DNA from: Escherichia coli
Lineage (GTDB): Bacteria; Pseudomonadota; Gammaproteobacteria; Enterobacterales; Enterobacteriaceae
DNA length: 64,000 nucleotides
Assembly: GCF_024298765.1 (NCBI RefSeq)
Contig: NZ_CP101210.1
Strand: one strand, 5' to 3'
The position numbers were made by a program, and so were the translations under genes. Every line of letters starts with the position of its first letter. Position 1 is the first letter of the stretch. The notes under the pieces were generated by a model. That model was not told the origin of the DNA, did no database searches, and was given only the letters and a program-made list of their open reading frames with translations. Below are positions 15,745-53,528 of this stretch, piece by piece.

Positions 15745-15820
<76 letters not shown>

Positions 15821-15874
15821 GTTTAAAAGACATCGGCGTCAAGCGGATGTCTGGCTGAAAGGCCTGAAGAATTT

Positions 15875-15948
15875 GGCGCGTTAACAAAGCGGTTATGTAG
15901 CGGATTGCAAATCCGTCTAGTCCGGTTCGACTCCGGAACGCGCCTCCA
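15875..15948 (+). tRNA. cysT: tRNA-Cys (GCA)
   Basis: 74-nt sequence ggcgcgttaacaaagcggtt...cgcctcca; anticodon loop attGCAaat. Confidence 0.9.
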
Positions 15949-15960
15949 CTTTCTTCCCGA

Positions 15961-16047
15961 GCCCGGATGGTGGAATCGGTAGACACAAGGGATTTAAAAT
16001 CCCTCGGCGTTCGCGCTGTGCGGGTTCAAGTCCCGCTCCGGGTACCA
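15961..16047 (+). tRNA. leuZ: tRNA-Leu, long variable arm; integration target of the prophage
   Basis: 87-nt sequence gcccggatggtggaatcggtagac...tccgggtacca; its 3' half is duplicated at 53405-53459. Confidence 0.9.
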
Positions 16048-16116
16048 TGGGAAAGATAAGAATAAAATCAAAGCAATAAGCAGTGTCGTGAAACCACCTT
16101 CGGGTGGTTTTTTTGT
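15993..16116 (+). repeat. attL: 124-bp direct repeat (3' half of leuZ plus downstream terminator)
   Basis: Identical by eye to 53405-53528; includes the leuZ terminator hairpin gaaaccaccttcgggtggttttttt. Confidence 0.85.
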
Positions 16117-16870: not shown

Positions 16871-17061
16871 TTACTTTTGACTGGTTTGTTTTGCGAGCAT
16901 TATGTGTGTTGTTAACGGTACCCTAGCTAAGTGAGAGTTCCAAAATAAAACCCGCAGTTTTTACGCTGCGGGTTTTATTGTTTCTGTCGATGGGATAGGG
17001 TGCCACTTCGGCCAGCCTTGGCAACCGATTGACGGGGGATTACTCCCCCGTCGCGGTTTCC

Positions 17062-17202
17062 TTACTGCTTACACTGTAAGAACGCCGCAAACTCCGCTCC
17101 CCAGAAGCTCATCCGTATTTCACACAGCGAACCGTGCAGCATCCAGATGATGAGGATTACCGTCACGCAGAACGTGATGGCCGTAAGCGATTTTTGCGAC
17201 AT
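17062..17202 (-). CDS. Hok/Gef-family type I toxin-like small membrane peptide
   Basis: 46-aa translation MSQKSLTAITFCVTVILIIWMLHGSLCEIRMSFWGAEFAAFLQCKQ: TM helix followed by SLCEIR and E(F/V)AAF, the Hok family pattern. Confidence 0.55.
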   Translation of the reverse strand: MSQKSLTAITFCVTVILIIWMLHGSLCEIRMSFWGAEFAAFLQCKQ

Positions 17203-17383
17203 AGCGCTTGCTCCTTTTTAGGGGAGGCGCTAACCTATCACTTGCTAAGGTTAGATGGTTAGGGCCTCGGTTAAACAGAGATGTTTTCCGGGGCCTTTCC
17301 ACATCTGGCCTTCGGGCATACCCTCCGACCATCAGCCGAAAGGCACCCGCGCGTAATCTATCGTTTTTTTGTTGCTTCGGCAA
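17120..17383 (-). CDS. Mok-like overlapping reading frame (translational coupling frame for the hok-like gene)
   Basis: 87-aa ORF overlapping the hok-like gene in another frame, as in hok/mok/sok loci. Confidence 0.3.
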   Translation of the reverse strand: MPKQQKNDRLRAGAFRLMVGGYARRPDVERPRKTSLFNRGPNHLTLASDRLAPPLKRSKRYVAKIAYGHHVLRDGNPHHLDAARFAV

Positions 17384-17392
17384 TTCTGCTCG

Positions 17393-17653
17393 TTAATTCT
17401 GAGGTAAAGGCAAACTCATCTGATTGTTTCCCCTGTGTGACGTTGGCAGTTCATGCCACGGGATACCTTCTGAAGATCGAACGCCTGAGGTGTGTTTCGA
17501 TGTGAATTTATGGAAAGCTTCCAGTGTTGAGAAGCATACGCCGCATTCCAGGTTGTTACACTGGTAATACTTTTGTCGGACGGTGTTTGAATCATTTTCC
17601 GGACGACTTGTGCGGATACGGGCAGATGCGCCACAAAGCGGACAACGGAACAT
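17393..17653 (-). CDS. ogr: Ogr/Delta-family zinc-finger late-gene transcription activator
   Basis: MFRCPLCGASARIRTSRP...YYQCNNLECGVCFSTLE: Cys4 pattern and N-terminus resemble P2 Ogr. Confidence 0.8.
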   Translation of the reverse strand: MFRCPLCGASARIRTSRPENDSNTVRQKYYQCNNLECGVCFSTLEAFHKFTSKHTSGVRSSEGIPWHELPTSHRGNNQMSLPLPQN

Positions 17654-17896
17654 AGCAACCTCCCTTTAGGTGGTGCTATTCTAAACTTCATCAATGCAGA
17701 TTCCAACTCCTTCCCACTTTAAGCGAAGGATGGTGATAAAGTCAGAATATGTTAGATGAAGTCTAAACGGGCGATAAGTTTTCCAATATTTGAATAACAA
17801 CGTGGCAGGATTTTTGTTTATCAATTATCTTACACTTTTAAGTGTAATAAATTTGTTAGTGATGACAATATTGTGAGAGGAGATTATCAATTGAAG

Positions 17897-33015: not shown

Positions 33016-33593
33016 TGCGGGCCTCCTGTCGAATCGCTGCCGCCTTTCACGCCACCGTGTTTATGCGTATGCACTGTGATGCCGTTTGAGGTGAAATCGC
33101 CGCCGCTGTGCGTGATATTGCCGCTCATCTTTCCCCCTTTTGTGACGTCAAGCGTCGCTGTTCTCAGAAGGTCTGTGCATTCCACGACGGGCGCGTCCAG
33201 TGTCACGCTGACGGATGCCTGCAGGGTGGCTGTTTTCATGCCGCTGGCGCTCAGCGCGCCTGCGTCCGCGTCGTAGCGGAACACCGCGCCGTCCGGCGCG
33301 CTGACCACGATTTCTTTCAGGCTTTTGCCGGGGGGCGGACTGGCATCACTCCACAGGCTGCCAATTATCATGGCGGTTTCCGGGTTGCCGCCAATGCAGG
33401 CAATTACCACCTGTTCGCCGGGTGATGGCGGCAGCCACACATTGAAGGCTCCCGCGCGCGTGGTGTTCCAGCGCAGCCAGCCTGTTTCCAGTCCGCCGCT
33501 GCGAACGCGCACGCGCCAGGACTTCTCATCAACTTCAGAGATGATCCCGGTACGGATGATATTGCTCAGCAGTCGCATGAGTTCTGCGCTCAC
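33012..33593 (-). CDS. Baseplate spike/assembly protein gpV
   Basis: 193 aa upstream of W. Confidence 0.8.
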   Translation of the reverse strand: MSAELMRLLSNIIRTGIISEVDEKSWRVRVRSGGLETGWLRWNTTRAGAFNVWLPPSPGEQVVIACIGGNPETAMIIGSLWSDASPPPGKSLKEIVVSAPDGAVFRYDADAGALSASGMKTATLQASVSVTLDAPVVECTDLLRTATLDVTKGGKMSGNITHSGGDFTSNGITVHTHKHGGVKGGSDSTGGPQ

Positions 33594-34234
33594 CGTACAG
33601 CCTCCGCAATCCGACCCAGCACCGTGTTATAAATCAGGCGCTCATCTGCCTGGCTGATACCCAGCAGCTCACGTACCGGGTAATCGGTGAAAATGCCCGG
33701 CGCAACCTGATCGCGCTCACCGAACTGATGAACGCGTGCAATACGTGCGGCCACGCCGCTGTAACCCACCGTCACACCGGAAGCATCTGCACGGGCTTTC
33801 AGGTAGCGGGCGGTGCGCAGTTTTACGAACATGGGGACGCGCTTTGTGCTGTCCTGGTTGATGCGCCGGGTGCGTATTTCCAGAAAACGGTCGATGTCAT
33901 CCCGGTAAAACGTGCGGATATTGTTTTTATCCTCATCCCACCCGGTAATGGTTCGCCCGTATTTCCCCGTGTCGTGATGCCAGTTTTTCAGCGTGCGTGC
34001 TTCGTTATTCCAGATAAAGCGAATGCGCTCCTGTATCCGGGTTACGCGGCGTCTGCGAGGTGTCCACGCGGTCCCGTCCGGCGCTTTCTGTGACCGGATA
34101 CGTGCCTGCTGGGCGCGGCGTAAATCCTGTGCCAGCTTTCTGGCGATGTTATTGATGACCTGCTGATTCAGGCTGTCGCGGATGGCCTCAAAGGTTTCAT
34201 CCACACGGGTGAATGCCTTATCCATCGCTTTCAC
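33590..34234 (-). CDS. Tail completion protein gpS
   Basis: ORF after R; start uncertain (the ORF is longer than P2 S). Confidence 0.7.
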   Translation of the reverse strand: MKAMDKAFTRVDETFEAIRDSLNQQVINNIARKLAQDLRRAQQARIRSQKAPDGTAWTPRRRRVTRIQERIRFIWNNEARTLKNWHHDTGKYGRTITGWDEDKNNIRTFYRDDIDRFLEIRTRRINQDSTKRVPMFVKLRTARYLKARADASGVTVGYSGVAARIARVHQFGERDQVAPGIFTDYPVRELLGISQADERLIYNTVLGRIAEAVR

Positions 34235-34685
34235 CCCACGTCACATCCTGGAATACATGCGACCAGTCGCCTTCGGAAGAGGGCAGACGGGGTTTTGGCT
34301 CTGGCAGGTGTTCTGCCTGCGGTGTACCCTGACTGCTGCGCGTAATGCGAACGCGTTCCCGCAGGGGGAGCGTAAACAGGAGATCGGCGCTGTCATCGTC
34401 ATTGATAACGGCGGAAAATTTGATGTCCTGATTACGCTCCGGATTGAGCAACAACTGTGGCTGATTTTCGGATAACCACGCCAGTAGCGGCAGCGTGAGG
34501 TCGTCCAGCTCCCCGGCGTAATCCATGACAAACATCACCATCTGATAGCGGTAAACAAACGAGGGCGTTTCTCCGGTCGTTTCAATGTTGCCGCTCTCCA
34601 CGAAAATGGTGAATTTTTCCGGGTTGGCCTGACACCATCGGCATGAACGGGTCATGGCTTCACGCAGGGAATCAGTTTTCAGCAT
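34218..34685 (-). CDS. Tail completion protein gpR
   Basis: 155 aa, same length as P2 R. Confidence 0.8.
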   Translation of the reverse strand: MLKTDSLREAMTRSCRWCQANPEKFTIFVESGNIETTGETPSFVYRYQMVMFVMDYAGELDDLTLPLLAWLSENQPQLLLNPERNQDIKFSAVINDDDSADLLFTLPLRERVRITRSSQGTPQAEHLPEPKPRLPSSEGDWSHVFQDVTWGESDG

Positions 34686-34962
34686 GGTTGTTGTCCTCGT
34701 TGTTCAGTCGTTGCAGCCTGCGCTGTTCCAGTAATTCAATGGCCCGTTTATCCGCGTTACAGGTTTCCAGTGCATCCAGAAGGCGGTCGCCCCATATACC
34801 GAGATTTCCCCATGTGGGAGTGTCAGGGAAGGGGGGAGGCGTTACCGGTATGGTCAGCGTCTGCGGTATAAGCCGGACTGACGGCGCTGGCCGTGGCGCG
34901 TTCTGCGTGCCTGCGCAGCCTGTCAGTAAAACGAGCGTCAGGCAAAGCGTGGGCGCATTCAT
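34672..34962 (-). CDS. Rz1-like outer-membrane lipoprotein spanin (LysC-like)
   Basis: Lipobox LTLVLLTGC, Pro-rich mature part, embedded out of frame in the Rz-like gene. Confidence 0.5.
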   Translation of the reverse strand: MNAPTLCLTLVLLTGCAGTQNAPRPAPSVRLIPQTLTIPVTPPPFPDTPTWGNLGIWGDRLLDALETCNADKRAIELLEQRRLQRLNNEDNNHAEN

Positions 34963-35230
34963 CTTTTGCAATATCGTTGCGTAGCTGTTCACGTCTTGCC
35001 TCTCCGTCCTGATTGCGTTGCTGATTTTCCACGCGGAGTTGCGCCAGCACCTGCTGCATATCCTGTACCCCGGCGCTAATGATATTCAGGGTGTCGGCGG
35101 TACGTTTCAGGGTGCTGGCCTGCGCTTCGTTTCTGGCGTTCTCCCGGCCCAGCGACCATGACAGACGCATGGATGTTCCCCATGCGGCAATCAGAAGGAA
35201 AGCGACACCCAGCGTGGGCCAGAGCTTCAT
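34823..35230 (-). CDS. Rz-like inner-membrane spanin (LysB-like)
   Basis: N-terminal TM MKLWPTLGVAFLLIAAWG then a coiled-coil-like region; start chosen at the internal Met. Confidence 0.5.
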   Translation of the reverse strand: MKLWPTLGVAFLLIAAWGTSMRLSWSLGRENARNEAQASTLKRTADTLNIISAGVQDMQQVLAQLRVENQQRNQDGEARREQLRNDIAKDECAHALPDARFTDRLRRHAERATASAVSPAYTADADHTGNASPLP

Positions 35231-35619
35231 GCCGGATAGACTCCGTGTGGTAACTGAAAATGCGGTCCGTCTTTCAGGGTCTTCCAGTCGCCGCCCCATT
35301 CCACCGGAATATTCAGCTCCCGGCTGGCCTGTCTGAATGCTGCTGCGATTTTTTCGTACAGCGGCCATTCCCATGACACCTGGCTGCCGATATAAGCCAC
35401 AACATCCACGGCATGTCCCGTAAGGTGGCGGCTGTTCATGGTCTGGCTCTTACCTGTGGCCACAAGTTGCTTCTGGCGGTAACGGCTGCGCAACCCTTCG
35501 GTGATACCAAAATCCACTTCCGAAATTTCCAGTGCCCGTCGGGTCACTTTCACCAGATCAGGATTTACGCCCTGCAAATTCTTTTCGCTCCGGCTGCTGA
35601 ATTTAAATGTGTTGCTCAT
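35227..35619 (-). CDS. Endolysin, peptidase M15 (VanY/L-Ala-D-Glu peptidase-like)
   Basis: 130 aa with Zn-binding-like motif SRHLTGHAVDV...W; sits in the lysis cassette after the holin. Confidence 0.65.
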   Translation of the reverse strand: MSNTFKFSSRSEKNLQGVNPDLVKVTRRALEISEVDFGITEGLRSRYRQKQLVATGKSQTMNSRHLTGHAVDVVAYIGSQVSWEWPLYEKIAAAFRQASRELNIPVEWGGDWKTLKDGPHFQLPHGVYPA

Positions 35620-35939
35620 TCGTCCTTCTCCTTCCCCCTGCGATTAAAGGCCGCAATAACCTTGTCGCGTGCTTTCTCTGCGCCCATAAAACCGATTGAT
35701 GCGCCGATAAACGTCACGGCATCTTCAGGAAACCCGAAGAAGCGCAACGACCCGGCCACGGCCATGGCAAGAACGCCGCACGCCAGCGATCCCGTTACGG
35801 TCTGAACCAGTGTTCGTCCGTCATAAAGACTCATCAGCGCGGAAATGCTGACTGCCGCGCCTACTGCATACACCGTTGGCAGGTGGTCAAAGAGCCACGC
35901 AATAACCTGCTCTGTGATCCCTGTTTGAATGGTGCTCAC
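35616..35939 (-). CDS. Holin (P2 Y position)
   Basis: 107 aa with 2-3 TM helices and a charged C-terminus (RRGKEKDE); GTG start overlapping the gpX stop. Confidence 0.55.
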   Translation of the reverse strand: MSTIQTGITEQVIAWLFDHLPTVYAVGAAVSISALMSLYDGRTLVQTVTGSLACGVLAMAVAGSLRFFGFPEDAVTFIGASIGFMGAEKARDKVIAAFNRRGKEKDE

Positions 35940-35941
35940 TG

Positions 35942-36148
35942 CTACTCCCCCCACAACTGAATCATTTCTCGTTTCTTCTTCTCCGGCTCCGGCATCTCCA
36001 CGTCCTGCCCGGCGTCCAGAAATACCTGCTGACAGAGTCCGGGGTTGGCATCCAGCACCTTTTCGGTGACGCCCTGCGTCGTGCCGTAGTACCGGAAACA
36101 GAGCGAATCCACGGTGTCGCCTTCCAGTGCCTTCACTTTCATCAGCAC
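35942..36148 (-). CDS. Tail protein gpX
   Basis: 68 aa, the size and position of P2 X (67 aa). Confidence 0.7.
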   Translation of the reverse strand: MLMKVKALEGDTVDSLCFRYYGTTQGVTEKVLDANPGLCQQVFLDAGQDVEMPEPEKKKREMIQLWGE

Positions 36149-36645
36149 AACTCCGCAAAAATTCGCGGGCGGCGCAGAATGTCAGAGATGGCCCAGCTCA
36201 CATCGCGCCACAAATCCGATGTCTGTATATCCAGTGCGTCCGCCCGGCGGTCGCCCTTATCCGTTGTGTCCGCATCGCGGTAACGCTCCAGAATCAGGGC
36301 GCGTGTGGCGGTATAAACGGCATTGCGCCAGTGCCAGAGATTGACGCTTTCTCCGTTAATTACGGGTGCCGGAACATCGGCCAGCGTCTGATGGCCAGCC
36401 GCCTGCTGTTCCTGCTGCCATGCTTCCAGCTCGCGGGTAACGTGAGCCACCGCCCCGGTGGCGGTATGCAGCAGGCGGGAGGTGGTCACGCGCCCCGGCA
36501 GTCGTACCGCCAGACGCAGCTCACGCAGCACAATATCCGGCCAGAATGCACCCGCTGAAATACGGGTATCACCATCATCGGTATCGGTGATGTCGTCCTC
36601 TGCGGGTCCGGGGTTGGTTCTGGCAACCATACTCATGGGGTTCAC
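36142..36645 (-). CDS. Head completion/stabilisation protein gpL
   Basis: 167 aa after the M gene. Confidence 0.8.
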   Translation of the reverse strand: MNPMSMVARTNPGPAEDDITDTDDGDTRISAGAFWPDIVLRELRLAVRLPGRVTTSRLLHTATGAVAHVTRELEAWQQEQQAAGHQTLADVPAPVINGESVNLWHWRNAVYTATRALILERYRDADTTDKGDRRADALDIQTSDLWRDVSWAISDILRRPRIFAELC

Positions 36646-36737
36646 TCCTGAAAAAATCGGGCGGTGGGTGCGCGGTGTAAACGGTCACGGAGTCAAACCG
36701 GAACACCGCGCACGCCGCCCGCTGACGGGGTCAGTCG

Positions 36738-37538
36738 TTAACCGCGCTTCGCCTTCTGCGTCGCGGTGGTTTTTCGTGTTGCAGGCTTCCGCGTTGTCTT
36801 TTTACTTTTGCTGCTTTCGTTCTGCGCCTGTGGTGTGCTGGCATCTTCTGGTGCGGCTGCGGAATCGGCTTTTTTCAGAGCGCGGGAAAGGGTTGCAATC
36901 TCGCGTTTCACACCTGCGTTCGGGTTCAGGTGCATCGCTTCGCGCAGCAGCTTCAGTGATGAGGCCATGCTGTCCGCATCGCTCAGGCTACGGCGGGCAA
37001 AGGCGCACGCCTTGCATAATTTGGCTCGCACTTCGTCCGGCATATCCTGGTTGGCGACAATTTCCCAAAGTGTGTCCAGTGGTTCGATAAAGGCGGACAA
37101 ATCCGCGTCGGCATCCGTCCCGGCCTGCGTCAGTACCGGGTTGCAGATTTCTTCGGTCAGTACCGTGGCAGCAGTACGGCCAAAGTTATCCGGCATGATG
37201 AGGTTGTGACGGACCACATACGCACCAATACGCAGCGCAAGCGGAAGATCGCCGCAGTCAATTGCCCACACCATCAGCGTGGCAATCACTTCATCCTGCT
37301 GCCCGCCGTCAGCCTCCAGCGTTCCCTCAATCCAGCCGGAAAAGTCCGGCAACAACTCTTTTTTGATGGCGGCTTTCGCGCTTCTGGCCTGTACCCCCTT
37401 AAGTCGGGCCTGTGCCAGACGCAGACGATACAGCACCTCTTCATGCGCGGTACGCGCGGCGTGGTCCACGCCTTCATTCGCCCGGCCTGCGCGCTGTGCC
37501 ATCACGTTCTGCCAGTGTTGCTGTGCAGGAGTAATCAT
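36738..37538 (-). CDS. Terminase small (endonuclease) subunit gpM
   Basis: 266 aa after the capsid gene N. Confidence 0.8.
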   Translation of the reverse strand: MITPAQQHWQNVMAQRAGRANEGVDHAARTAHEEVLYRLRLAQARLKGVQARSAKAAIKKELLPDFSGWIEGTLEADGGQQDEVIATLMVWAIDCGDLPLALRIGAYVVRHNLIMPDNFGRTAATVLTEEICNPVLTQAGTDADADLSAFIEPLDTLWEIVANQDMPDEVRAKLCKACAFARRSLSDADSMASSLKLLREAMHLNPNAGVKREIATLSRALKKADSAAAPEDASTPQAQNESSKSKKTTRKPATRKTTATQKAKRG

Positions 37539-37583
37539 TTTTTCTCTCCGTTACAGGCGGGCATGATGCCCGCCGTGAGTTGA

Positions 37584-38636
37584 TTAGCTGTCGGCGAACT
37601 TCAGGCCAGTGACCATCGCGCACTTGCCATAGTCTTCAACGACATAAGCGTCATTGATGGACTGGTAGGTGGCGATGCGGTTGTATTCCGGCTCGTCTTT
37701 CATCAGGCGACGCATTGTTCCTTTCTGCCAGTAAATCGACAGGTTATTGAACGAGGTGATCAGCATCGTTGAATCCGGGAAGAACGGCGCAAGGAATACA
37801 TCCAGCCCGCCAATGGCGCGCGATGACAGGATGAGCTGTCCGGCAAGTAATTCCGCATTGGGATTCTGGCCGCTGATGCTGTTCAGCACGGGCAGACGCA
37901 GCGAGTTAAACAGGTTGCGCCCCATAATCACCACGAGGTCGTCAGCTTCCTTGTGCCATTCATCCAGCAGGGATGAGCGCGCGTCCTGTACCAGTGCATC
38001 AGCGTTCGCATACTTACCCGCGTGCGCCACGGTGTTGTCCATGTTGCGGGAGGTCAGCGTCACGTCATTCATTACGCGCTCGCTGGCGTCGGTTCTGATG
38101 TGCTCCAGCCATCCCACGTTAACGTCCTGAAGCAGCTTGTTGGTGCTGAAGTTGGACTCATCTGCGTGAGACGTGCCGTTGAAACCGATCATGATGCGGT
38201 CAAGCGCCACCTGCCGGGCAATCTGTGTGCTGACGCGTGACTGAAAATCAGGGTGTGCCGCCCAGGCATCAAGCTGCGGATACGAAATAAACGTGTCGTA
38301 GTTCACCTGTTCGCACTGATATTTGCGGTTTTTCAGATCAACCACGTTATTCGGGTTACGGCGTTTTGTGCCGTCATAACTGGTATTCGTGCGCGCAATC
38401 GGCCCGGTGGTGTCCAGGAGGATTTTTTCGCCTTTCTGGTCGGTCACACCGAACACGTTAATTTTTTTTGTAAATTCAGTGCTCTCCTTTACTGCGTTTT
38501 CAAAACGCTGCTGCACCGAGGGTTCCACGGTAAATCGCGATACCAGTGCAGATACCGGGATGTTGTTAAGCGACGCCTGCTGCGCCATATAGCAACCCAG
38601 CTTGTTGCGGGTAATATCTGACATCACCAGATTCAT
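37584..38636 (-). CDS. Major capsid protein gpN
   Basis: 350 aa after the scaffold gene. Confidence 0.9.
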   Translation of the reverse strand: MNLVMSDITRNKLGCYMAQQASLNNIPVSALVSRFTVEPSVQQRFENAVKESTEFTKKINVFGVTDQKGEKILLDTTGPIARTNTSYDGTKRRNPNNVVDLKNRKYQCEQVNYDTFISYPQLDAWAAHPDFQSRVSTQIARQVALDRIMIGFNGTSHADESNFSTNKLLQDVNVGWLEHIRTDASERVMNDVTLTSRNMDNTVAHAGKYANADALVQDARSSLLDEWHKEADDLVVIMGRNLFNSLRLPVLNSISGQNPNAELLAGQLILSSRAIGGLDVFLAPFFPDSTMLITSFNNLSIYWQKGTMRRLMKDEPEYNRIATYQSINDAYVVEDYGKCAMVTGLKFADS

Positions 38637-42870: not shown

Positions 42871-42909
42871 AATTGTGCAAATTTGTGCACTATTGTGCAT
42901 TTGTATAGT
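42871..42909 (+). promoter_or_regulatory. Iterated TTGTGCA repeats and candidate -10 (TATAGT) upstream of the cargo operon
   Basis: aaTTGTGCAaatTTGTGCActaTTGTGCAtttgTATAGTg: three copies at about 10-11 bp spacing followed by a -10-like hexamer. Confidence 0.4.
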
Positions 42910-42978
42910 GAAAAAAATATAGCAGAAAGTATACTTAGCGCCTTGTGGGCTACGTTAACTTTGCAGGAACATTTGGAA

Positions 42979-44358
42979 ATGAAAAAAATCAATAAAGAAG
43001 ATTCTAAAAGAACCTTTTTACGTGGATGGTTGCGATTTCTTCGTAGCGTTGAGAGAGCTAAGAAAAAAAAGCCTGCGCAAGAGAAAAATGGTAGTCTTCG
43101 TTTTTCCGATGAAACAACTCCTGTCCAAAACCAAGTCGCTACGTTCATTGAAAATATATCGATTATAAAAGAGTATGACTCATCAATTCTTCGTCGTGAC
43201 GCAGAGAAGATATTAATACCTAAATATTTTGACTTATATGACAATCCAGAGAAATCTCTGCTATTTATTAGTGCAGCCACAAAATTAATTGCAAGAGGTA
43301 AATGGAAATCATATATTTTTGATTACAAGAAAAACAAAAAACACTGTCTTGGTCTTGAGTGTCTATTAGGTGTTGCTCTTACAGCAGCAAGGCAAAGTAA
43401 TATAAATTTCAAAGATACGATGATTCAGATTAATGGTATCTACCCTAAAGATGAACAGTATCTTGAAATTATCAGGGATGTCGGGCTTGTAAAAGAGATT
43501 AGTAATGCTGCACCAGGTAAAGTTCTGGACTCTACTGAAGCATCGAAAAAAGCGAATCCGAAGAAACGAATCTTCTCTGCTGATAGTATCGGAAAGGAGA
43601 ATGCTTCTGCCTTTGCCCATGACAGAAAAAATGTCACTGCTGAAAAATTTACCGCATACATAAACGAATGCTTAAATGATCATAATTTAAAACTTGTACA
43701 TGAGGCAGAAAAGCATTTAACTTCCTGCATGGGGGAACTCCTTGATAATGCGGAGCGGCATTGTGGGTTAGAGCAACGCCCACGCTGGTATTTGAGAGGT
43801 TTTGTTAATAATAACGTACGAAACCCCATATGTGAGTTGGCTGTTTTCAATTTTGGGAAAACTATCAGCGAAACTTTTGATAATTTACCTGAGGATCATT
43901 TTTCATTAAGTCAACAAGTTAATCCATACATAAATAAGCATATTAAGAAAAAGGGTATGTTTAAGGAAGGATTAACAACAGTAGCGGCCTTGCAAGGGCG
44001 GGTGAGTTGTAAAAACGAGAAAGAAACTGACAGTTCTGGCACCGGAACAATTGAATTATTGAAGTTATTTCAAGATATGCATGATAATCTTAAAAAAATG
44101 GGAAGAGATATTAAAGGTGGGATAAAAATGACTTTAATATCTGGTAGTACTCATATTAACTTTGATGGATCATATAAATTAAAGCAAAGGTTGGTTAATG
44201 ACGAGGAAAGTGACATTTTTACTTACCCTTTTAATGATGTAGGGCTTGAATCTGAACCGGATCGCAACTATCTTAAGCGTATGAAGGATGCTCGATTTCC
44301 TGGAGTTATGATCAATATTCGTTTTCCTCTACCAGAAAACGCCACCCAGCGAACTTGA
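42979..44358 (+). CDS. Hypothetical protein with C-terminal GHKL-type (histidine kinase/SpoIIAB-like) ATPase domain; candidate defence gene A
   Basis: N-box-like ELLDNAERH, G-box-like DSSGTGTIELL, terminal GG...G...FPLP typical of HATPase_c; AT-rich; RBS AGGAAC before ATG 42979 (ORF finder starts at 42883). Confidence 0.55.
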   Translation: MKKINKEDSKRTFLRGWLRFLRSVERAKKKKPAQEKNGSLRFSDETTPVQNQVATFIENISIIKEYDSSILRRDAEKILIPKYFDLYDNPEKSLLFISAATKLIARGKWKSYIFDYKKNKKHCLGLECLLGVALTAARQSNINFKDTMIQINGIYPKDEQYLEIIRDVGLVKEISNAAPGKVLDSTEASKKANPKKRIFSADSIGKENASAFAHDRKNVTAEKFTAYINECLNDHNLKLVHEAEKHLTSCMGELLDNAERHCGLEQRPRWYLRGFVNNNVRNPICELAVFNFGKTISETFDNLPEDHFSLSQQVNPYINKHIKKKGMFKEGLTTVAALQGRVSCKNEKETDSSGTGTIELLKLFQDMHDNLKKMGRDIKGGIKMTLISGSTHINFDGSYKLKQRLVNDEESDIFTYPFNDVGLESEPDRNYLKRMKDARFPGVMINIRFPLPENATQRT

Positions 44359-44368
44359 GGACAGGTAC

Positions 44369-44713
44369 ATGAAAATGGCTGACATCACCATAGATTTCAA
44401 TAAGTTAGTAAAAGATAGTAACAAGAAACTTTTTGCTGGACGTTCTAATGGGCGCCAGGCCTATGATTACTTTAATATAGGGAAATTTTGCACAACCAGT
44501 AATGATAGATTATATCTATTGATCCCCAAGGGAATTGTTGTATCAAGCTCATACTTTCTAGGTATGCTTGAAACGGTTTTGCCGAAATTTTCTTCGCCTA
44601 GCGAATTTTATAGTCGCACTGTACTTGATGGTCGTGAATATAAAGAAGGTATGCTTTCTGAATTAGATAGAGCTGTAAGGAGAGGCTTACATAAAAATGT
44701 TCCCTTCTTTTAA
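44369..44713 (+). CDS. Small protein, possibly STAS/anti-sigma-antagonist-like; candidate defence gene B
   Basis: 114 aa immediately after the ATPase gene; IVVSSSYFLGMLE resembles the STAS core; very tentative. Confidence 0.4.
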   Translation: MKMADITIDFNKLVKDSNKKLFAGRSNGRQAYDYFNIGKFCTTSNDRLYLLIPKGIVVSSSYFLGMLETVLPKFSSPSEFYSRTVLDGREYKEGMLSELDRAVRRGLHKNVPFF

Positions 44714-45506
44714 AAATATTTTTCAAATCAAAATGACAGCGCTGTCTGTCATTTTTTTTATATTCCCCGCAGCTTGCTCTGTGACAGATTTTTCCAATAA
44801 AGAAAACATTGAATGTAATGAGTCACTTTATCCAAACACGCCTTTTTATATTTCCGATTCAGGACTTAGTGGTATATCATCACCGTTTTTGTTATCCGGA
44901 AACCCGAATGATGGCTTGATGTTTTGTGAAAAGGCAAACGACACCTTTCATAAGTTATCTCTGGCAAGGGATAACAAAAAAGATTTATTTACTAATTATT
45001 TCAAAGATGTTCCAAATTCCTATGATATATATAATATTGTAAAGGTTCCGGAAAATGGTCCAGAGTGGATTTCTATTGGCATCTCTTTATTTGCTTTAGT
45101 TTCATCCTTTGTTATTCCTTGTGTTCAACATAGAAAAGAACGTAAAGAAGCTATTAATGAAGGGTATTGGGTAAGAGAAGTAATTATGCCTAAAATTAAT
45201 GGGTTGGCATTCGATGTTGTGCAAAGTTTTAAAAACTCCATGGCATTATCAGAAGAGGAGTTTCTTAGTGTATTCAGTAATACTCTTTTACCAAAACTAG
45301 GAGAGTTACGGGATTCATTATATTTGTTTAATAGTTTTCCAGAATTAAATGCAGATATTGAAAATCTAGAAAGTATTTGTGACTCCTTGGAGGAAGAAGT
45401 TTCCAATCATATAGACTCGCCTAATGAAATAAGAATTTCTGATATATCAATGTTTCATTCCAAATTAATACAGAAATTAATTTTACTTCATAAGAAGATA
45501 GGTTGA
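44697..45506 (+). CDS. Membrane-anchored protein; candidate defence gene C (possible effector)
   Basis: Overlaps gene B by 17 nt; hydrophobic N-terminus (MTALSVIFFIFPAACS) and a central TM helix (WISIGISLFALVSSFVIPCV). Confidence 0.45.
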   Translation: MFPSFKNIFQIKMTALSVIFFIFPAACSVTDFSNKENIECNESLYPNTPFYISDSGLSGISSPFLLSGNPNDGLMFCEKANDTFHKLSLARDNKKDLFTNYFKDVPNSYDIYNIVKVPENGPEWISIGISLFALVSSFVIPCVQHRKERKEAINEGYWVREVIMPKINGLAFDVVQSFKNSMALSEEEFLSVFSNTLLPKLGELRDSLYLFNSFPELNADIENLESICDSLEEEVSNHIDSPNEIRISDISMFHSKLIQKLILLHKKIG

Positions 45507-53404: not shown

Positions 53405-53528
53405 TTTAAAATCCCTCGGCGTTCGCGCTGTGCGGGTTCAAGTCCCGCTCCGGGTACCATGGGAAAGATAAGAATAAAATCAAAGCAATAAGCAGTGTCG
53501 TGAAACCACCTTCGGGTGGTTTTTTTGT
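53405..53528 (+). repeat. attR: 124-bp direct repeat (partial 3' leuZ copy plus terminator)
   Basis: Identical by eye to 15993-16116. Confidence 0.85.

Follow-up and report, generated by a model that had tools for sequence, protein, structure and literature searches.

In phage P2 the lysis genes Y-K-lysA-lysB-lysC lie between X and R; the holin Y belongs to the Pfam family Phage_holin_3_2, and the endolysin K is a lysozyme of the lambda-R type (1am7, E=4.6e-44). Phage lambda carries the set S-R-Rz-Rz1, in which the dual start of S yields an antiholin, R is a transglycosylase and Rz1 is wholly embedded in Rz. Two architectures of spanin genes have been defined, 'overlapped' for P2 lysB/lysC and 'embedded' for lambda Rz/Rz1 (PMC6139136). 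The endolysins of phages RB49 (EndoRB49) and T5 are biochemically proven L-Ala-D-Glu endopeptidases with a conserved Trp, W114 in T5 and W109 in RB49 (PMC10487532). In the ChiX enzyme of Serratia marcescens, His68, Asp75 and His123 are the Zn2+ ligands, Arg47 is a substrate residue and the D120A variant is inactive (PMC5778951). ChiX is part of ChiWXYZ, a chromosomal rather than prophage-borne system that serves chitinase secretion, and in which the lipoprotein gene chiY precedes the transmembrane spanin gene chiZ (PMC4259817).

We found a lysis cassette at 34672-35939 of the analysed stretch of Escherichia coli DNA (64,000 nucleotides, hereafter the window), with four genes on the minus strand in the order holin, endolysin, LysB and LysC. 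Its limits, the LysC stop at 34672 and the holin start codon at 35939, are exactly those proposed by the first-pass annotation. The upstream neighbour is tail protein X (35942-36148, minus strand), a P2 gpX homologue (Pfam Phage_tail_X, 1.7e-20), and the downstream neighbour is tail completion protein R (34218-34685, minus strand), a P2 gpR homologue (Pfam P2_Phage_GpR, 4.6e-40). Homology to P2 is also seen in the flanking genes L, X, R and S, which share 38%, 48%, 40% and 26% identity with their counterparts, in line with the earlier description of the late region as otherwise P2-like. The holin stop and the endolysin ATG share an ATGA overlap, as do the endolysin stop and the LysB start; because of these stop/start overlaps, all four cassette genes are probably translationally coupled. 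Profile scores for the cassette proteins are far above chance level. A consensus scan of 33400-37700 returned zero promoter-like sites, and terminator-like sites were not above the level of shuffled sequence; this outcome is compatible with an unbroken late operon, but is uninformative.

The region 34200-36700 matches the Xuanwuvirus phages P88, 500465-2 and P884B11 at 97.6-99.1% identity, collinear over 2.5 kb. Nucleotide identity of the cassette is 97.6% to P88 and 99.1% to 500465-2, and a 1.6-kb comparison with P88 gave 98.3%. The two copies of a 124-bp direct repeat, 15993-16116 and 53405-53528, mark the limits of the host prophage, beside tRNA-Leu. From its sequence we classify the element as a Xuanwuvirus (P88-like) prophage, and we consider it highly probable that a P88-like (Xuanwuvirus, Peduoviridae) temperate phage has integrated at tRNA-Leu(taa) of an E. 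coli chromosome and that the locus, in the late operon between X and R, is its lysis cassette. The cassette is the usual four-gene lysis set of a P88-like, P2-related E. coli prophage, real and already known.

The endolysin gene (35227-35619, minus strand) encodes a single-domain protein of 130 aa. The first-pass annotation had read in it a VanY/L-Ala-D-Glu peptidase-like metal-binding motif rather than a lysozyme, with a Pfam search for Peptidase_M15 as the check set beforehand; this search matched Peptidase_M15_4 (E=8.1e-12, 46 bits, cut-off 25). The protein also matches PHROG 465 'endolysin' (E=8.4e-77), and its PDB relatives are ChiX (5opz, 3.4e-48), 23ri (2.9e-48), 8q2g (3.7e-46) and the T5 endolysin (2mxz, 8.7e-23). 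It is 63% identical to the RB49 endolysin, 62% to Serratia ChiX and 43% to a T5-like Lys. When aligned with these three enzymes, the metal motif S63-x-H65-x-x-G68-x-A70-x-D72 together with D117-G-P-H120 is invariant, and so are R44, H65, D72, W112, D117 and H120 individually. H65, D72 and H120 are the counterparts of the three ChiX ligands (His-x6-Asp ... His); D117, three residues before the last His, matches ChiX Asp120, R44 matches Arg47, and W112 matches the conserved Trp of the T5 and RB49 enzymes. Pfam, the PDB relatives and the invariant residues therefore all bear out the motif. The outcome named in advance as contrary to it, a lysozyme or glycosidase identity for 35227-35619, was rejected, as zero such families matched in Pfam, PHROGs, NCBIfam or the PDB; NCBIfam gave zero matches of any kind for the endolysin, LysB or LysC. 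By these sequence comparisons the protein is assigned to the MEROPS M15C/LAS-family zinc peptidases of the L-alanyl-D-glutamate endopeptidase type, and its 62-63% identity to ChiX and EndoRB49 predicts specificity for the L-Ala-D-Glu bond.

The N-terminus of the endolysin is MSNTFKFSSRSEKNLQG, and a hydropathy scan revealed no signal peptide, no signal-anchor-release (SAR) sequence and no membrane segment, the latter because the maximal 17-residue Kyte-Doolittle hydropathy is only 0.83. The enzyme is therefore a candidate for the canonical (holin-dependent, non-SAR) type. In the alignment, the T5-like Lys carries an 11-residue Ca2+-binding loop, inserted after the conserved Trp and before the catalytic Asp, that the endolysin lacks, as do the RB49 enzyme and ChiX. 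A place in the T5-type calcium-activated M15C subgroup was rejected for this reason; without the loop, the endolysin would be expected to work independently of calcium, as EndoRB49 does (PMC10487532).

The holin gene (35616-35939, minus strand; 107 aa) starts with GTG, preceded by the Shine-Dalgarno sequence GGGGGAG 5 nt upstream. Its product matches Pfam Phage_holin_3_1 over profile positions 5-99 of 99 (E=1.1e-19, 71 bits, cut-off 23.8) and the holin/anti-holin family PHROG 126 (1.1e-34), scores just below the cut-off of the NCBIfam equivalog TIGR01594 holin_lambda (54.0 bits, cut-off 55.05), and aligns to lambda S in BLASTP at 23% over 60 aa (E=1e-4). These matches point to membership in the lambda-S (class I) family. 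A crude hydropathy scan at the 1.4 level passed residues 20-39 and 43-70, with a weaker third segment at about 74-87 that falls in the stretch aligned to the C-terminal half of lambda S (residues 26-85); since the scan gave only two strong segments, it is the full-length Pfam alignment that speaks for a three-transmembrane topology. The gene has a single GTG start, with no Met-Lys-Met dual start of the antiholin type, and an in-frame GTG further upstream at 35954 would add only VGGVA, with no positive charge. As there is also no lysA, no antiholin is evident in the cassette.

LysB (34823-35230, minus strand; 135 aa) is the Rz-like partner, matching PHROG 214 'Rz-like spanin' at 1.3e-40. It matches PHROG 89, the P2 LysB family, only weakly (1.7e-4) and Pfam DUF2570 below the cut-off (21.5 bits, cut-off 26.6). 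Direct BLASTP against P2 LysB and lambda Rz gave nothing significant, only weak PHROG cross-hits being seen. The hydropathy scan marks residues 1-23 as a hydrophobic N-terminal transmembrane segment, beyond which lies a polar periplasmic domain with many charged residues and one Cys (C91). This predicted combination of transmembrane segment and periplasmic domain is that of an i-spanin.

LysC, the Rz1-like lipoprotein, lies on the minus strand at 34672-34992 or 34672-34962, depending on the start. The GTG at 34992 gives 106 aa and has the Shine-Dalgarno sequence GGAGAGG 6 nt upstream; the ATG at 34962 gives 96 aa. The protein matches Pfam LysC (9.4e-14, 51.5 bits, cut-off 27), PHROG 3001 and PHROG 456, and is 32% identical to P2 LysC (E=3e-5). 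Its lipobox, L-T-G-C with Ala at +2 (...LVLLTGC-AG...), fits the consensus [LVI][ASTVI][GAS]C (PMC6139136), and there is no Asp at +2; with this lipoprotein signal, LysC is a putative o-spanin. The gene is read in frame +1 with respect to lysB. Its first 140 nt (from the ATG) or 170 nt (from the GTG) lie inside lysB; another 151 nt follow the lysB stop, and the last 14 nt overlap gene R. The first-pass annotation had placed an Rz1-like gene out of frame and embedded in the Rz-like gene. The out-of-frame position holds, but the embedded (lambda Rz/Rz1) architecture is rejected, since more than half of lysC is outside lysB; the spanin genes have the overlapped architecture of P2 LysB/LysC.

With P2 the cassette shares the position between X and R, the overlapped spanins and a homologous LysC. 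The remaining genes differ. BLASTP revealed no similarity between the holin (Phage_holin_3_1) and P2 Y (Phage_holin_3_2), nor between the endolysin and P2 K, the latter a lysozyme, as the first-pass annotation had it, and the former an M15 peptidase of an unrelated family; Pfam and PHROG assignments differ likewise. The endolysin gene is followed directly by lysB, with no lysA, and the relation of LysB to its P2 namesake is marginal (PHROG cross-hits around 1e-4). Judged by these homologies, the cassette would not count as a P2 lysis module with Y, K and lysA. The module exchange suggested earlier for the endolysin therefore stands, but is wider than proposed: relative to P2, the holin and the endolysin are both non-homologous replacements, the antiholin LysA is gone, and the overlapped spanin pair is kept, its LysB faintly related. 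Such a cassette is textbook phage mosaicism, with unrelated but functionally equivalent holin and endolysin genes inside a conserved P2-type late operon.

The endolysin gene can also be exchanged among close relatives. In 38 E. coli genomes and in Citrobacter phage Shae_phiSM the M15 gene is replaced by that of a GH108 muramidase, which in the phage consists of the Pfam domains Glyco_hydro_108 and PG_binding_3. Alignment with Shae_phiSM delimits a swappable segment at 35208-35638: identity is 97% in each flank (546 and 603 columns) and 35% in the middle, and the junctions fall about 20 nt into the holin gene and about 25 nt into lysB. GH108 in the same slot between these 97%-identical flanks is direct evidence that the gene is swappable, and the M15/GH108 pair offers a clean natural comparison of endolysin types in one genetic background. 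The slot might be a discrete recombining cassette for two unrelated enzymes (M15 in 1007 genomes, GH108 in 38) whose polymorphism is not neutral mosaicism but maintained by selection, for instance via modified host peptidoglycan or inhibitors of endolysins, an idea that we regard as unlikely.

The exchange at this locus, together with the lack of relation to P2 K, could be taken to mean that this one prophage acquired its M15 endolysin in a recent and unusual event of its own. The distribution speaks otherwise: M15 is the majority form, found in 1007 genomes (at least 80% coverage) as compared with 38 that carry GH108, and of the 13 phage records covering at least 80% of the query, all but Shae_phiSM carry the M15 cassette at 97-99% identity. 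The composition of the M15 gene (GC 0.537, GC3 0.603) resembles that of its neighbours, and we saw no compositional sign of recent import in GC or GC3 of either the holin or the endolysin gene. A recent acquisition is therefore highly improbable, and the majority status of M15, the phage records and the composition indicate that the replacement relative to P2 is old, at the level of the genus; if either form is derived, it is GH108, the minority allele. Any suggestion, which the term 'module exchange' might carry, that the M15 cassette is peculiar to this prophage falls away, as it is standard in P88-like phages and present in 1007 of the 5426 complete E. coli genomes (at least 80% coverage), about one in five.

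The same GH108 replacement bears on whether the M15 protein is an endolysin at all. The matching Pfam model is titled 'D-alanyl-D-alanine carboxypeptidase' and homologues in some phage records bear that label, which would suit a VanY-type D-Ala-D-Ala carboxypeptidase or wall-remodelling enzyme with a moron or resistance function. Yet the slot is filled in relatives by another endolysin, the gene is flanked by those of the holin and the spanins, with ATGA overlaps, and the cassette has no second peptidoglycan hydrolase. Moreover, the nearest characterised relatives, at 62-63%, are biochemically proven L-Ala-D-Glu endopeptidases (ChiX, PMC5778951; EndoRB49, PMC10487532), and ChiX shows very little identity to genuine VanY (PMC4259817). 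We find a carboxypeptidase role exceedingly improbable. Defective P2-like prophages are numerous in E. coli, and the closest syntenic genome has a frameshift in replication gene A, so that the cassette might instead be a decaying, non-working remnant of a cryptic prophage. However, its four reading frames are intact and equal in length to those of the viable phage P88, both att repeats are present, and the replication gene in the window is a continuous ORF of 930 aa; decay thus appears very unlikely, and we retain the reading of a P88-like phage lysis cassette.

Based on the holin-endolysin-spanin pathway and on the characterised homologues, we propose the following mode of action for this cassette. 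The lambda-S-type holin would build up in the inner membrane and open large holes at a set time, through which the soluble, signal-less 130-aa zinc peptidase could exit. The endolysin would then cleave the stem peptides of the peptidoglycan at their L-Ala-D-Glu bond, with H65, D72 and H120 predicted to hold Zn2+, D117 to serve as catalytic acid/base, and R44 and W112 to assist substrate binding. Once released from the peptidoglycan mesh, the complex of LysB in the inner membrane and LysC as outer-membrane lipoprotein would disrupt the outer membrane.

The holin, endolysin and LysB coordinates agree with the P88 annotations, the holin also with PGAP, and the endolysin already bears the PGAP label "M15 family metallopeptidase". 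RefSeq already carries such labels. The relevance of the cassette beyond correct annotation is small. LysC is unannotated in the reference P88 record, and its PGAP starts are inconsistent (65 aa from ATA without the lipobox, or 89 aa from CTG); the full gene, from GTG 34992 or ATG 34962, is preferable in P88-like prophages. The P88 paper (PMC5285337) and a 2026 survey of P2-like viruses (PMC13100340) make no mention of the endolysin, holin or spanins, and our literature search found no paper on the endolysin of P88 as a P2-like prophage.

Among the systems described above, lambda shares with the cassette the Pfam family of the holin and the holin-endolysin-spanin logic, and its spanins have no significant similarity to those of the cassette. 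EndoRB49 and EndoT5 are, like the cassette endolysin, single-domain globular zinc M15C L,D-peptidases, about 130 aa long and sharing its motifs, but they come from unrelated lytic phages, unlike the host phage of the cassette. The same set of gene types occurs in ChiWXYZ, compared here by sequence for ChiX and by published description for ChiW, ChiY and ChiZ: it combines a single-start lambda-S-family (holin-3) protein ChiW, the signal-less M15 endopeptidase ChiX, 62% identical to the cassette endolysin with catalytic residues in common, and two spanins. The pairing of a single-start holin with an M15 peptidase, the gene types of ChiWX, might also serve lysogens in releasing protein without lysis, a possibility that we likewise regard as unlikely. 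The nearest systems are the Xuanwuvirus phages P88, 500465-2, Chuche, P884B11 and PhiR44_2, which carry the same four genes in the same order, at 97.6-99.1% nucleotide identity across 34200-36700, and from which the cassette has essentially no difference.

The lysis cassette at 34672-35939, read on the minus strand, consists of four closely packed genes, and its limits are exactly those drawn in the first-pass annotation, namely the lysC stop (34672) and the holin start (35939). The holin gene (35939 to 35616, 107 aa) begins with a GTG codon, with a GGGGGAG ribosome-binding site 5 bases upstream and the stop of tail gene X 2 bases upstream. The ATG of the endolysin gene (35619 to 35227, 130 aa) overlaps the holin stop (ATGA), and the start of the i-spanin gene lysB (35230 to 34823, 135 aa) overlaps the endolysin stop in the same manner. 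The o-spanin gene lysC starts within lysB in the +1 frame, either at an ATG (34962, 96 aa) or at a GTG (34992, 106 aa), and ends at 34672, 14 nt into the tail-completion gene R. The GTG appears the more likely start, because a GGAGAGG site lies 6 bases upstream of it and a lysine then falls in the signal peptide N-region.

The endolysin had been read as an M15-type peptidase, and it indeed matched Peptidase_M15_4 in Pfam (46 bits, cut-off 25, E=8.1e-12) and PHROG 465 'endolysin' (E=8.4e-77), and no lysozyme or glycosidase family. Its nearest relatives among solved structures were a 'Peptidase M15C domain-containing protein' (23ri, 2.9e-48), Serratia ChiX (5opz, 3.4e-48), a 'peptidoglycan L-alanyl-D-glutamate endopeptidase' (8q2g, 3.7e-46), the phage T5 endolysin (2mxz, 8.7e-23) and Listeria Ply500 (2vo9, 2.8e-7). 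In a multiple alignment the protein shows 63% identity with the RB49 endolysin, 62% with ChiX and 43% with a T5-like Lys, and R44, S63, H65, G68, A70, D72, W112, D117, G118 and H120 are invariant; these correspond one-to-one to experimentally defined residues of ChiX, T5 or RB49. In ChiX the zinc ligands are His68, Asp75 and His123, the catalytic residue is Asp120 (D120A is inactive), and Arg47 is also experimentally defined (PMC5778951); a conserved tryptophan, Trp114 in T5 and Trp109 in RB49, is required for catalysis (PMC10487532). Like RB49 and ChiX, the present endolysin lacks the 11-residue loop with which the T5 enzyme binds calcium, suggesting that it would be calcium-independent. Its N-terminus is not hydrophobic (highest 17-residue hydropathy 0.83), and by analogy with the standard pathway it would need the holin for access to the wall. 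The holin itself belongs to Phage_holin_3_1, the lambda S family (E=1.1e-19, full profile aligned), and to PHROG 126 (1.1e-34), and falls slightly below the TIGR01594 holin_lambda cut-off (54.0 bits against 55.05).

LysB matched PHROG 214 'Rz-like spanin' (1.3e-40), with DUF2570 under threshold (21.5 bits against 26.6), and has hydrophobic residues 1-23 at its N-terminus followed by a polar domain with many charged residues. LysC matched the Pfam LysC family (51.5 bits, cut-off 27). Its lipobox, L-T-G-C followed by Ala, fits both the consensus [LVI][ASTVI][GAS]C (PMC6139136) and outer-membrane sorting. Spanin genes occur in three architectures, embedded (lambda), overlapped and separated (T4) (PMC6139136). 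The Rz1-like gene had been described as embedded out of frame; it is out of frame, but the pair is overlapped rather than embedded, since lysC runs 151 nt past the lysB stop. Public annotation of this o-spanin is inconsistent across the prophage family: the P88 RefSeq record (locus L001, 1986-2124; window counterpart 34672-34992) leaves it unannotated, whereas PGAP starts it at an ATA codon in NZ_AP027206 (L004, 20001-20198; 65 aa), cutting off signal peptide and lipobox, and at a CTG in NZ_CP195454 (L005, 19344-19613; 89 aa). This is the known bias of gene callers against overlapped o-spanin genes (PMC6139136).

Over the 2.5 kb surrounding the cassette, nucleotide identity is 99.1% with Escherichia phage 500465-2, 98.4% with Xuanwuvirus P884B11 and 97.6% with phage P88, the type species of genus Xuanwuvirus, family Peduoviridae; those records annotate the endolysin gene as 'endolysin; Peptidase M15'. 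P88 is mitomycin-inducible and forms clear plaques, with a latent period of ~20 minutes (PMC5285337), so a phage carrying this cassette does lyse cells. The 1268-bp cassette was found in 1099 of 5426 complete E. coli genomes (1007 at a coverage of at least 80%), and PGAP labels its genes 'phage holin family protein', 'M15 family metallopeptidase', 'DUF2570 domain-containing protein' and 'Rz1-like lysis system protein LysC'. The cassette is very common, already known and already annotated; the initial observation is confirmed, and its interpretation was right in substance except for one term.

The prophage spans ~15993 to 53528 (roughly 37.5 kb), bordered by a perfect 124-bp direct repeat (15993-16116 and 53405-53528). 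The left copy overlaps tRNA-Leu(taa) at its 3' end; this tRNA belongs to a Gly-Cys-Leu cluster at 15745-16047. In a syntenic E. coli genome the site falls between pgsA and yecA, and in strain JNE082640 a related prophage whose lysis cassette is 99.9% identical occupies a different site, adjoining serS.

The portal gene and replication gene A are separated by three consecutive plus-strand ORFs (42883-44358, 44369-44713 and 44697-45506; 491, 114 and 269 aa), at a position that in P2-like phages is a hotspot of anti-phage defence cargo. Neither Pfam nor PADLOC gave a match to any of the three. The block is missing from the closest syntenic genome and is present at a coverage of at least 80% in only 22 of the 5426 genomes, always annotated 'hypothetical protein (x3)'. 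The tail-fibre region (26338-30504) differs from that of the closest genome and looks like an invertible host-range segment: a minus-strand serine recombinase/invertase (26369-26974; Resolvase and HTH_7) adjoins a fibre-type ORF with a Gp34_trimer domain (27061-28044), which lies beside a tail-fibre assembly gene (28046-28573), both on the strand opposite to the main fibre gene (29138-31240). At the left end of the prophage, 16930-17677 holds a putative Hok/Gef-family toxin gene and a putative ogr/Delta-type late activator gene, as suggested by a 93.5% match to the annotated L004 region.

By BLASTP of P2 late-region proteins against those of the window, P2 L, X, R and S have homologues in the prophage (38%, 48%, 40% and 26% identity), and the late operon around the cassette is of the conserved P2 type. 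P2 holin Y, which belongs to Phage_holin_3_2 and PHROG 175, and P2 endolysin K gave no significant match to their counterparts; K had been described as lysozyme-type, correctly, as its match to lambda lysozyme R (1am7, E=4.6e-44) shows. LysC is 32% identical to P2 LysC (E=3e-5, one Pfam family). The LysB proteins gave no significant BLASTP match, their only link being weak PHROG hits (~1e-4) in both directions, and no lysA gene lies between endolysin and lysB. Relative to P2, these comparisons indicate that non-homologous genes have taken the places of holin and endolysin, that the antiholin has been lost and that the spanins are homologous but diverged.

That the endolysin gene can be exchanged is shown directly by an alignment of the window with Citrobacter phage Shae_phiSM, also a Xuanwuvirus. 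This phage has the same holin and LysB, and a 181-aa GH108 + PG_binding_3 protein replaces the M15 enzyme between them; the two flanks (546 and 603 columns) align at 97% identity and the unrelated middle at 35%, with junctions at ~35638, ~20 nt before the holin stop, and ~35208, ~25 nt into lysB. In E. coli the full-length GH108 version occurs in 38 genomes and the M15 version in 1007, and the M15 gene resembles its neighbours in GC and GC3. The proposed module exchange is thus right in kind, yet M15 is the majority state in this lineage and the replacement relative to P2 is old.

The cassette also has a counterpart in the Serratia chiWXYZ operon, which combines ChiX with a holin of the holin-3 family that has a single start and with two spanin-like genes, and which its discoverers described as lysis-cassette-like and serving chitinase secretion (PMC4259817). 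The window cassette is a phage-borne counterpart of this operon; the endopeptidases are 62% identical, and beyond ChiX the comparison follows the published description, in which the spanin gene order differs, the lipoprotein gene coming first in Serratia.
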